A stretch of DNA of 14,748 bases from Spirochaetaceae bacterium (GTDB lineage: Bacteria > Spirochaetota > Spirochaetia > DSM-2461): assembly GCA_051531975.1 (NCBI GenBank), contig JAOPTT010000025.1:1-14748 (forward strand), in the 5' to 3' direction. Below the pieces are notes generated by a model. It did not search any database. It saw only the letters and a list, made by a program, of their open reading frames with translations, and was not told the DNA's origin. The translations under genes were made by a program, and so were the position numbers. This document shows positions 12,980 through 14,748 of the stretch, in pieces. How positions within the stretch are numbered: position 1 is the stretch's first letter; every line of letters begins with the position of its first letter.

Positions 12980-13000
12980 AATTCTATTATATAATATAAT
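12972..13000 (+). promoter_or_regulatory. Candidate sigma70 promoter of metK
   Basis: TTGTAT (12972-12977)-N17-TATAAT (12995-13000), with RBS GGAG at 13022-13025. Confidence 0.5.
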
Positions 13001-13033
13001 ATTCTCAAAATTAATTTACATGGAGACATATAG

Positions 13034-14212
13034 ATGGCAATAAGAAAAAACTATACTTTTACATCTGAAAGTGTTGGAGAAGGACACCCAGATAAAGTAT
13101 GTGACCAAATATCCGATGCTATATTAGATGCAGCTTTAACAAACGATCCTGATTCTAGGGTTGGTTGTGAATGTTTCGCATCAACTGGAATGGTACTTGT
13201 TGGTGGAGAAATGACCACTAATAGTTATATAGATATAATAAAGACTGTTAAAGAAACCTTAAAAAAAATTGGATATAATAACTCTGAATACGGTATAGAT
13301 CACCAAACATGTGCTGTATTATCAGTAATAAATGAGCAATCATCAGATATTTCCCAAGGGGTTACCGCTGGTTCAGGTCTACATAAAGAACAAGGTGCTG
13401 GGGATCAAGGAATGATGTTTGGTTATGCATGTAAAGATACACCAGAATTAATGCCTGCACCAATTTTTTACTCACACGAAATAATGAAGCAAGCATCTCT
13501 TGTTAGACACAATAAAGTTCTAGATTTTTTAAGACCAGACTCAAAATGTCAGGTTAGTGTTGAATACAAAGATGGAAAACCATTTAGAATTCCAGCTGTT
13601 GTACTTTCACATCAACATGATGATTTTGTAAATGGTAGAAAGATTACATATGAAGAGATTAAAGAAGGATTAATTGAAGAGATTGTAAAAAAAGCTCTTC
13701 CTGCACACTTAATTGATCAAAATACTATTTTTCATATGAATCCTACTGGTAGATTTGTTATTGGTGGTCCTCAGGGTGACGCAGGATTAACTGGTAGAAA
13801 AATTATTGTAGATACTTATGGTGGAGCTGCTGCACACGGTGGTGGTGCATTTAGTGGTAAAGATCCGTCTAAAGTAGATAGGTCTGCAGCATATATGGCT
13901 AGATATATTGCAAAAAATTTAGTTAAGGCTGATATTGCAGATAAATGTGAAGTTGAATTAGCATACGCAATTGGTGTTGCTGAACCAGTATCAATATATG
14001 TAAATACATTTCAGACAGGTAAAGTTGATGATAGTTTAATTGAAACTGCAATTAGAGATAATTTTACCCTAACTCCTTCTGGAATAATTACTACATTAGA
14101 TCTAAAAAGACCCATCTACTCTCCAACTGCTGCATATGGACATTTTGGTCGAGCTGAGTTCCCATGGGAGAATACAGATATGGCACAAAAATTAAAATCA
14201 CAATTGTTATAA
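13034..14212 (+). CDS. metK: S-adenosylmethionine synthetase
   Basis: [63 protein letters not shown] and TAAYGHFGR. Confidence 0.99.
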
Positions 14213-14214
14213 GA

Positions 14215-14252
14215 AAAAGAGTTAAAAATATTGACACATTTTTAACTCTTTT
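14215..14252 (+). terminator. Perfect 15-bp inverted repeat after metK (probable terminator), overlapping the tRNA promoter
   Basis: AAAAGAGTTAAAAAT (14215-14229), loop ATTGACAC, ATTTTTAACTCTTTT (14238-14252). It starts 2 nt after the metK stop. The stem is AT-rich, so terminator strength is uncertain. Confidence 0.6.
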
Positions 14253-14259
14253 GTATATT
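14231..14259 (+). promoter_or_regulatory. Sigma70 promoter of the tRNA-Asn array
   Basis: TTGACA (14231-14236)-N17-TATATT (14254-14259), 21 nt upstream of the first tRNA. Confidence 0.8.
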
Positions 14260-14280
14260 ACTGCTTGTTGTTAGAAACAT

Positions 14281-14353
14281 TCTTCTATAGCTCAGTTGGT
14301 AGAGCGGGTGACTGTTAATCACTAGGTCGGAGGTTCAAGTCCTTCTGGGGGAG
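14281..14353 (+). tRNA. tRNA-Asn (anticodon GTT), copy 1; CCA not encoded
   Basis: Cloverleaf TCTTCTA-TA-GCTC-AGTTGGTA-GAGC-G-GGTGA-CTGTTAA-TCACT-AGGTC-GGAGG-TTCAAGT-CCTTC-TGGGGGA-G. Anticodon at 14314-14316. U1-A72 and G73 are typical of bacterial tRNA-Asn. Confidence 0.96.
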
Positions 14354-14361
14354 AAATTTTT

Positions 14362-14460
14362 CGATGAGAAAATATTTCTTGTTGTAATTTTTGTATTTTT
14401 CGATGAGAAAATATTTCTTGTTGTAATTTTAACTTTTTTCGATAAGAAATATTCTTATTG
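14362..14460 (+). repeat. Three hairpin repeat units in tRNA spacer 1 (39-nt period)
   Basis: CGATGAGAAAATATTTCTTGTTG at 14362-14384 and 14401-14423 (identical), and CGATAAGAAATATTCTTATTG at 14440-14460. Confidence 0.9.
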
Positions 14461-14463
14461 AAA

Positions 14464-14494
14464 AGTTTTGGTAAAAACTATAAATATACCACAT
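14464..14494 (+). repeat. Conserved 31-nt pre-tRNA leader (second copy at 14700-14730)
   Basis: AGTTTTGGTAAAAACTATAAATATACCACAT versus AGTTTTAGTAAAAACTATAAAAATACTACAT: 28/31 identical, and both contain an AGTTTT-N4-AAAACT hairpin. Confidence 0.85.
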
Positions 14495-14567
14495 TCTTCT
14501 ATAGCTCAGTTGGTAGAGCGGGTGACTGTTAATCACTAGGTCGGAGGTTCAAGTCCTTCTGGGGGAG
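14495..14567 (+). tRNA. tRNA-Asn (GTT), copy 2, identical to copy 1
   Basis: Same 73-nt sequence, starting 214 nt after the start of copy 1. Confidence 0.96.
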
Positions 14568-14575
14568 AAACTTTT

Positions 14576-14695
14576 CGACGAGAAAATGTTTCTTGTTTTA
14601 ATATTTGTTAATGAGAAAATGTTTCTTATTTAATTTTTGTTAATGAGAAAACATGCTTTGTTGAAATGTATTCGATGAGAAAATATTTCTAATCG
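14576..14695 (+). repeat. Four hairpin repeat units in tRNA spacer 2 (32-33-nt period)
   Basis: CGACGAGAAAATGTTTCTTGTTT (14576), TAATGAGAAAATGTTTCTTATTT (14609), TAATGAGAAAACATGCTTTGTTG (14641, degenerate) and CGATGAGAAAATATTTCTAATCG (14673). Confidence 0.85.
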
Positions 14696-14730
14696 AATAA
14701 GTTTTAGTAAAAACTATAAAAATACTACAT

Positions 14731-14748
14731 TCTTCTATAGCTCAGTTG
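14731..14748 (+). tRNA. tRNA-Asn copy 3, 5' part only (cut by window end)
   Basis: TCTTCTATAGCTCAGTTG is identical to the first 18 nt of copies 1 and 2 and is preceded by the same leader. The anticodon is not visible. Confidence 0.8.

Follow-up and report, generated by a model that had tools for sequence, protein, structure and literature searches.

The long spacers of a tRNA-Asn gene array at the end of a 14,748-nt stretch of Spirochaetaceae DNA (hereafter the window) are best read from their sequence as DNA resembling repetitive extragenic palindromes (REPs) that appears to have been amplified inside a tRNA operon, and not as a tRNA-specific RNA system. The first tandem unit of each of these spacers overlaps a copy of a dispersed, bulged palindrome that, judging from its aligned copies, is maintained by paired changes, unlike the hairpin previously proposed for the units themselves; the contrast between the two is clear. 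The window represents the first 14748 bases of a 71-kb contig (C25) in a draft genome of 29 contigs (5.46 Mb, ~31% G+C, estimated to be 98.5% complete), which is treated here as that of a marine spirochaete assembled from a metagenome; this genome (G000) was compared with those of three congeners (G001, G002, and G003) and of more distant relatives. The assignment is based on three matches to FlaA, a spirochaete flagellar sheath protein family absent from 14 control genomes, and on a marine metagenome being the public run that best represents this DNA. Coordinates without a contig name refer to the window, and features are on the + (tRNA-sense) strand unless stated otherwise.

Repeat units of the tRNA-Asn spacers

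The initial annotation described the spacers as built from seven covarying hairpin repeats. Seven 21–23-nt units, starting at 14362, 14401, 14440, 14576, 14609, 14641, and 14673 and separated by 9–16-nt T-rich linkers, were confirmed in the sequence; Tandem Repeats Finder gave a period of 39 nt for spacer 1 and of 32 nt for spacer 2 (88–92% match). While the count of seven is real for the window, it does not represent the whole set, as at least three more units (units 8, 9, and 10, starting at C25 14805, 14835, and 14867, respectively) are located past a scaffold gap of 53 N within the array (C25 14749–14801) and before the operon terminator.

Most units form weak hairpins. Unit 1 (14362..14384; 10 pairs including three G·U, loop ATA) and unit 2 (14401..14423; identical to unit 1) fold at −6.2 kcal/mol and unit 4 (14576..14598) at −6.7 kcal/mol; folded singly, units 1, 2, 4, and 9 ranged from −6.2 to −6.7 kcal/mol and units 5, 8, and 10 from −3.7 to −4.7 kcal/mol, with the latter value found for unit 5 (14609..14631). 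In the alignment of all ten units (A1), the left arm of the palindrome is gone from units 5, 6, 8, and 10. Unit 6 (14641..14663) is degenerate, with a best fold of −1.3 kcal/mol and about −0.6 kcal/mol for the proposed pairing; its hairpin is largely lost, and it is the second-weakest + strand match to R1, a covariance model of the full 31-nt unit. The last unit of each spacer carries, as initially reported, an extended stem; unit 3 (14436..14464) forms 13–14 pairs around a loop ATA (−11.3 kcal/mol) and unit 7 (14669..14699) forms 8 + 5 pairs around a G·A mismatch (−10.4 kcal/mol).

The spacers also prefer to fold on the tRNA-sense strand, in agreement with the initial annotation. Folded whole, spacer 1 reached −35.0 on the + strand (z −5.46) compared to −14.6 on the − strand (z −1.46), and spacer 2 reached −36.3 (z −4.10) compared to −19.6 (z −1.86). 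The minimum-energy folds of the whole spacers are not simply three or four local hairpins; arms of different units pair with each other, which would be expected when a self-complementary unit is repeated. Short open reading frames in the units were rejected as candidate genes; they have 3–15 codons, lack a ribosome-binding site (only the tRNA's own 3′ end is found upstream of the first), and differ in length and stop codon.

Selection on the proposed unit hairpin is not supported by the covariation analysis. Across the ten aligned units (nine distinct), which are paralogues within one locus and not independent lineages, 81.5% of the cells were paired compared to 80.1% when the 3′ partners were shuffled (a value reached in 105/500 shuffles), and the covariation score was 0.173 compared to 0.146 (98/500 shuffles as high). 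Only one of the 14 pairs, located in the stem extension, showed a two-sided change, while five pairs varied on one side only; the repeats can thus not be called covarying. Pairing dropped to 48–57% when partners were slid, and the register of the hairpin is therefore real. The pair types initially listed for positions 4/20 and 2/22 were also found to be right in a pair count on the alignment; however, the U-G, U-A, and C-G changes among them are single transitions absorbed by G·U tolerance and carry no statistical weight. Tandem copies of a self-complementary unit can mimic a covarying structured RNA, and one-sided, G·U-tolerant changes between paralogous copies should be given no weight as evidence; here, the true signal appears to lie in a different, overlapping hairpin that is shared outside the array.

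A dispersed bulged palindrome

This second hairpin is a palindrome of ~30 nt, to which the left half plus the centre of the array unit belong. Its 5′ side has a CAAAC-like outer arm and a TTYTC inner arm; the 5-nt loop is followed on the 3′ side by GARAA, a single unpaired T, and a GTTTG-like arm. In a shuffle test with 18 copies (A2), which overstates the signal because the copies are related by descent, 89.1% of the cells over 11 pairs were paired compared to 79.0% in shuffled alignments, and the covariation score was 0.298 compared to 0.116 (0/500 shuffles as high in both cases); two-sided changes were present in seven of the 11 pairs (0/500 shuffles) and no pair varied on one side only, with slid controls at 26–68%. 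Dispersed copies fold at −8 to −15 kcal/mol, with equal stability on both strands.

Within the array, palindrome copies sit flush with the 3′ ends of the first two tRNA-Asn genes, the outer arm beginning at the tRNA discriminator base (G). The copy at tRNA-Asn 1 (14353..14378; GAAAT+TTTTC, loop GATGA, GAAAA+(T)+ATTTC; −4.1 kcal/mol) is matched by R2, a covariance model of the bulged palindrome, at 14350–14386 (E 1.5e-6), and the copy at tRNA-Asn 2 (14567..14592; GAAAC+TTTTC, loop GACGA, GAAAA+(T)+GTTTC; −6.4 kcal/mol) at 14564–14600 (E 1.2e-7). Unit 1 is distinguished from unit 4 by a double change (T-A to C-G) under which the palindrome is preserved; this change is the ATA/ATG difference assigned to the loop in the scheme initially proposed, and it is paired with an AAAT/AAAC difference in the tRNA trailer. 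The same GAGAAAA segment is contested by the two structures, with −4.1 and −6.4 kcal/mol for the palindrome and −6.2 and −6.7 kcal/mol for the proposed hairpin in units 1 and 4, respectively.

Several searches indicated that the palindrome is dispersed in this genome. A 24-mer of spacer 2 was found with 100% identity on two other contigs, C13 (20 nt 3′ of a tRNA-Ser gene) and C16, and mismatch and profile searches yielded about 30 copies at about 10 loci. A 21-nt pattern (up to one mismatch) matched 17 times in this genome, three times in G001, and not at all in each of 39 other relatives, and the reversed pattern, used as a control, gave no match in this genome; in a species-representative collection (own-genome records excluded), the pattern gave 33 single matches, one per record, in unrelated taxa, which were taken as chance. 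With R2, 23 copies were identified in this genome and 14 in G001, compared to zero in each of 29 other genomes, including G002 and G003, which are 81% and 71% complete, respectively, so that their zeros prove little.

Among the 23 copies in this genome, two are in the Asn array (the first unit after each tRNA-Asn), one follows a tRNA-Ser gene in a cluster of tRNA-Ser and signal recognition particle (SRP) RNA genes, 11 are at contig ends (the ten inspected, excluding a copy on C1, are in ~165-bp repeats with pieces of the 5S rRNA 3′ end), and nine are in ordinary intergenic DNA. Intergenic copies include tandem arrays, one with six to seven 27-nt units (C2 161941–162111) and another, interrupted by an N gap, on C16. 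The 13 family loci examined were all intergenic, with no overlap by a real open reading frame of ≥100 aa; one overlapping frame runs through an N gap. In the closed genome of G001, where eight of the 14 copies were inspected, seven are located in repeats immediately 3′ of 5S rRNA genes and are antisense to the rRNA, while one is in the same orientation as the rRNA and is located ~115 nt 5′ of a 16S gene. Orientation relative to stable-RNA transcription is thus mixed (antisense in the 5S trailers, sense in the 16S leader and after the tRNAs). The initial annotation had proposed to test whether the repeats are confined to tRNA or rRNA operons and had named many orientation-independent copies in non-transcribed sites, beforehand, as pointing to DNA operators or REP-like elements; the left half of the unit proved to belong to a family with 9/23 copies in ordinary intergenic DNA and in mixed orientation.

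The full array unit has a different distribution. R1 gave 15 matches in this genome at E up to 1; nine represent + strand array units (E at most 2.6e-4), two are reverse-strand matches on the palindromic units 3 and 7, and four are outside the array (E 0.006–0.7), so that below 1e-3 only the array is matched. The 16-mer core of the unit (up to one mismatch) was likewise found inside the array in 6/6 matches. Amplification of the unit was therefore local.

No match beyond known RNAs was obtained from Rfam; a search of 13000–14748 at E up to 10, as suggested by the initial annotation, returned the two tRNAs and chance-level rows and left the spacers unmatched, and a search of the other repeat loci at the gathering threshold returned only rRNA, tRNA, and SRP RNA. 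No published description of the element was found among the titles and abstract openings in the literature searched on REPs, spirochaetes, and tRNA. One palindromic repeat, present in two of the four genus genomes searched, thus links a tRNA-Asn operon, a tRNA-Ser/SRP-RNA cluster, 5S trailers, and a 16S leader; as an element of marine spirochaetes without a recognisable transposase, it offers a tidy system for studying how REP-like repeats seed beside stable-RNA genes and expand, and whether they are bound by anything.

A number of other features were observed around family copies. Between two tRNA-Ser genes on C13 (114600–114700), upstream of a tRNA-Ser gene and an SRP RNA gene, a palindrome copy is followed by two copies of a different unit of ~38 nt. 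Tandem ~24-nt GGGACGATCCCTCCTTTTGTCGGT-like repeats adjoin terminators just before 5S-tail repeats on C17 (107950–108060) and C27 (− strand, about 350–450). A near-consensus promoter (TTGACA, 16 nt, TATAAT; G001 L032 1440–1530, − strand) is overlapped by the 3′ arm of palindrome copies in the 5S-trailer repeats, with a weaker promoter-like version in this genome at C17 108310–108345; this 5S-trailer promoter is on the antisense strand and is directed at the 5S gene. The 16S leader of G001 holds a family copy (L082 1501–1537, − strand), and the matching place in this genome (C28 40–80) carries a different, perfect 7-pair hairpin with similar flanks; the palindrome family may, from this resemblance, derive from an rRNA-leader hairpin. 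Two palindrome copies with 5S-tail-like flanks (C2 482484 and 530119) are located inside a 698-kb contig, far from rRNA genes, and one of them is preceded by a second, TTCTTGATCAAAGAA-type palindrome.

Spacers of related species and layout of the operon

The syntenic locus in G001, G002, and G003 includes three tRNA-Asn genes with the same promoter region (and, in two of the three, the same downstream gene), with spacers of 14–60 nt that carry different small hairpins and none of the units; in other genera, each of the 16 loci examined has a single tRNA-Asn gene. In an alignment of the spacers (A3), the last ~32 nt of each long spacer matches the 30-nt spacers of G003 over their full length, as well as the tail of one G001 spacer. 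This shared part is a 4–6-pair hairpin, with arms that differ compensatorily, followed by ATAAA; it corresponds to 14461..14494 in spacer 1 (hairpin AGTTTT/AAAACT, then ATAAA) and to 14697..14731 in spacer 2 (hairpin plus ATAAAAA). Since the tails of the long spacers align with whole spacers of the relatives, the 110–130-nt block of units represents an insertion or expansion that is found, among the genomes compared, in this genome alone.

In three of the four genus genomes compared, each downstream tRNA of the Asn array is preceded by a small hairpin and then ACTATAAA, with stem arms that differ compensatorily (AGTTC/GAACT versus AGTTTT/AAAACT), and a look-alike hairpin is present in the 27–28-nt spacers of a tRNA-Val array in this genome (C6 491550–492000, − strand). 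The ancestral hairpin and ACTATAAA could, from their recurrence, represent a shared processing signal.

The array is preceded by metK (ORF 13034–14212). An inverted repeat 3′ of the metK stop codon (14218..14249) is likely to be the metK terminator hairpin; over 14218–14259, its 12-nt arms enclose the −35 hexamer of the tRNA-Asn promoter in the loop and are followed by a T run. This arrangement, with the −35 hexamer in the loop, is kept in all three congeners, and the metK terminator and tRNA-Asn promoter look as if they occupy the same DNA. The promoter, the only one of the array, is sigma-70-like (14231..14259; TTGACA, 17 nt, TATATT) and was predicted from its consensus match (11/12 positions). 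The first tRNA-Asn(GTT) gene (14281..14353; 64.2 bits with the Rfam tRNA model; 14280–14354 according to ARAGORN) has no encoded CCA and has three G·U pairs in the acceptor stem (14281–14287 with 14346–14352; TCTTCTA with TGGGGGA), compared to two in the congeners. The second copy (14495..14567) was found by both Rfam and ARAGORN, and the third is represented by its 5′ part (14732..14748), as it is cut by the window end and the scaffold gap. Beyond the gap, C25 14802–14932 contains units 8–10 and then the single intrinsic terminator of the array (C25 14892–14932; terminator scan), which is strong and G+C-rich and is followed by a response-regulator/HD-type gene.

No promoter-like or terminator-like site was detected inside the array at the scan thresholds, and the array reads as one operon that ends in repeat units rather than in a tRNA. 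With one promoter upstream, one terminator after unit 10, and none between, the repeats are therefore predicted to sit in the tRNA precursor, which agrees with the co-transcription of units and tRNAs that had been proposed.

Assembled contigs from sequencing run X1, which probably comes from the source sample and does not provide independent biological support, cover 14327–14748 in overlapping pieces with zero differences and also reproduce the junctions beyond the N gap; the repeats are thus not an assembly artefact, a concern that had been raised initially. One X1 contig joins two tRNA-Asn genes by a 29-nt spacer of the ancestral type (depth 35.2, compared to 35.5 for flanking unique DNA) and may be placed either in the N gap of this genome or in a co-occurring relative; a second X1 contig (depth 26.2) carries the leader and acceptor variants of the relatives. 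The congener-like acceptor variant (T to C at 14284) is present on one X1 contig. Runs X2 and X3 cover only the promoter and tRNA parts, and the metatranscriptome X24 (likely from the source sample) matched only the tRNA body, at 90–95% likeness and with foreign flanks, and is uninformative on spacer expression.

Structure on the sense strand is common in the tRNA spacers of this genome; for 16 spacers between tandem tRNA genes, the mean z was −3.2 for the sense and −2.2 for the antisense strand, with 12/16 spacers more stable in the sense direction. Hairpins between tRNAs may provide a generic benefit, and nothing singles out the Asn units in this respect. The Lys-Glu (C19 35100–36050) and Thr-Tyr (C15 8300–9150) tRNA arrays, with three repeats each, have 65–100-nt spacers with about three unrelated hairpins each, whose stems differ between repeats by apparently compensatory changes (sense z −2.4 to −4.7).

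Origin of the long spacers and comparison with known systems

We consider it moderately probable that the long Asn spacers represent REP-like repeat DNA that was seeded at the tRNA end, tandemly amplified, and is co-transcribed and trimmed without a specific role. The repeats, their folds and strand bias, their family membership, and the absence of the insert from relatives were observed directly; from these, each long spacer can be explained as an old spacer of ~32 nt, common to related species, plus an insert of 110–130 nt. A REP-like palindrome would have become placed flush with the 3′ end of tRNA-Asn, and the rest of the insert would represent two or three partial tandem duplicates of this copy with periods of 39 or 32 nt, most simply accounted for by replication slippage or unequal recombination. 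The duplicates would have retained the purine-rich right half (GAGAAAA) and the T/G-rich tail, which would yield the weak A-U/G·U hairpins, and repeats of tRNA plus spacer may then have spread or homogenised the block along the array. The hairpins, presumably co-transcribed, would be cut off during tRNA trimming, by RNase P at the 5′ ends and by an RNase Z-type enzyme at the 3′ ends; the absence of an encoded CCA fits such an endonucleolytic 3′ cut. Most likely the units would have no dedicated function, or at most a generic one, such as independent folding of neighbouring tRNAs or the slowing of exonucleases.

Several observations weigh against an origin by repeat amplification without function. 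The strong + strand folding bias derives from G·U pairs, and selection at the RNA level would give the same pattern; a purely neutral origin has to blame T/G-rich composition of the sense strand or a transcription-linked mutation bias for it. The unit cores are more conserved than the linkers in A1, and in the final units of the two spacers stable stems have been extended independently, which looks less accidental. The bulged T and the first and last loop bases of the palindrome are invariant in A2, suggesting recognition by something. In addition, a search for the Y1/REP-associated tyrosine transposase (RAYT) family (PF01797) found no match in this genome, while the control search was positive in 6 of 14 reference genomes; no transposase was thus found that could account for dispersal of the palindrome or for its arrival at the tRNA end.

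The initial annotation favoured a different explanation, in which spacer structure is selected at the RNA level and tRNA maturation releases multi-hairpin RNAs that act as a multivalent protein or small RNA (sRNA) sponge or as processing or folding insulators. We regard this as unlikely, since covariation was no higher than in shuffles, unit 6 has decayed, ordinary units fold weakly (−3.7 to −6.7 kcal/mol), and the three congeners lack the units at the same locus, even though folding is specific to the sense strand and dependent on G·U pairs, the units are inside one predicted transcription unit, and the terminal unit of each spacer has an extended stable stem. The left half of the unit moreover comes from a family that is not confined to tRNA operons and is found in mixed orientation, the first unit of each spacer can form a competing hairpin, and no Rfam match was obtained; sense-strand structure is general in the tRNA spacers of this genome, which makes some role in precursor handling plausible. 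Stable spacer RNAs, if they exist, would make the locus a natural example of an RNA that derives from repeats and is carried by a tRNA operon.

Function at the DNA level, with the palindrome or the array units as protein binding sites in iteron- or operator-like arrays near stable-RNA operons, is also doubtful. No candidate protein was identified, and, for an operator, 11 pairs plus a 5-nt loop would be long; the later Asn units, without the left arm, would no longer be sites, and the G·U pairs on which the Asn units depend are without effect in duplex DNA. Binding sites are favoured by features of the dispersed family; its stem changes are all two-sided Watson–Crick changes without G·U intermediates, its copies are equally stable on both strands and mixed in orientation, the aligned copies all agree at the bulged base and at both end positions of the loop, and the 3′ arm of 5S-trailer copies overlaps a promoter-like −35 hexamer in both species (as read by eye).

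A further reading, that the palindrome is a recognition hairpin for a factor acting on stable-RNA operons in the genus and that the Asn array is a multivalent platform on the precursor or the DNA, seems rather improbable. It would build on a loop frame with first G and last A closed by C-G, on the invariant unpaired base, and on the sites in the 16S leader, in the 5S trailers, and after tRNA-Asn and tRNA-Ser; the factor could be, e.g., a processing, antitermination-like, or nucleoid protein. If this were true, the initial proposal of a structured element linked to tRNAs would hold in essence, with another hairpin in place of the one proposed; it is for the bulged palindrome alone that we retain a functional reading. 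Very improbable is that the units grade expression along the array by acting as weak intrinsic terminators or as pause sites; each hairpin is followed by a T-rich linker, but the T tracts are interrupted, the unit stems are weak and made of A-U/G·U pairs, the scan found a single G+C-rich terminator after the array, and it is not obvious what would be gained by termination between tRNA genes that are identical. An assembly artefact or short peptide genes, suggested by the scaffold gap inside the array and by an ATG in 6/7 units that opens a 3–15-codon frame, can practically be discounted, as the X1 contig set reproduces both spacers and the post-gap junctions without differences and the short frames lack a ribosome-binding site.

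Amplified REP-like repeat DNA, as favoured here, shares features with several known systems. In E. coli, the tRNA-linked repeats at tyrT, which give rise to RtT RNA, are located directly 3′ of a tRNA and ahead of the operon terminator and are removed by processing; these units are about 178 bp long, and their first part duplicates the 3′-terminal sequence of the tRNA. The Asn units are alike in position, between tRNA and (predicted) operon terminator, but differ in their periods of 32–39 nt rather than about 178 bp. Copies of the tRNA tail were considered and rejected as the source of the Asn units, the longest word common to the last 25 nt of the tRNA and either spacer being 4 nt, and Rfam RtT gave no match among all rows up to E = 10. 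The 3′ external transcribed spacer of E. coli glyW-cysT-leuZ is an sRNA sponge, a stable excised fragment complementary to particular sRNAs; the Asn spacers are similar in that they would be precursor segments that belong to no mature tRNA and might outlast processing.

Among eukaryotes, the tRNA arrays of Entamoeba (PMC2652664) are an evolutionary analogue and also combine tandem tRNA genes with lineage-specific, fast-changing short tandem repeats of no known function; these arrays are huge, however, and their repeats are microsatellite-like and do not form hairpins.

REPs and the bacterial interspersed mosaic elements (BIMEs) that contain them are the closest known relatives in kind. The palindrome differs from them in copy number (23 and 14, and not the typical hundreds per genome), in its A+T-rich composition, in its invariant single-base bulge, in its strong association with stable-RNA genes, and in that no Y1/RAYT was found. 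A GTAG or CGTC tetranucleotide at one end is given as a REP feature in PMC3733652; GTAG, CTAC, and CGTC were found in 0 of the 18 aligned copies of the palindrome, and GACG only in the loop of three copies. REPs without a dedicated transposase do exist, as is the case for the CGTC-tagged group (PMC3733652; PMC12306157). REPs and BIMEs resemble the palindrome in being imperfect palindromes of 20–40 nt that are strictly extragenic and often located just after genes or terminators; both also occur singly and in tandem clusters, show two-sided arm changes, have a narrow lineage, and may be transcribed within neighbouring RNAs.

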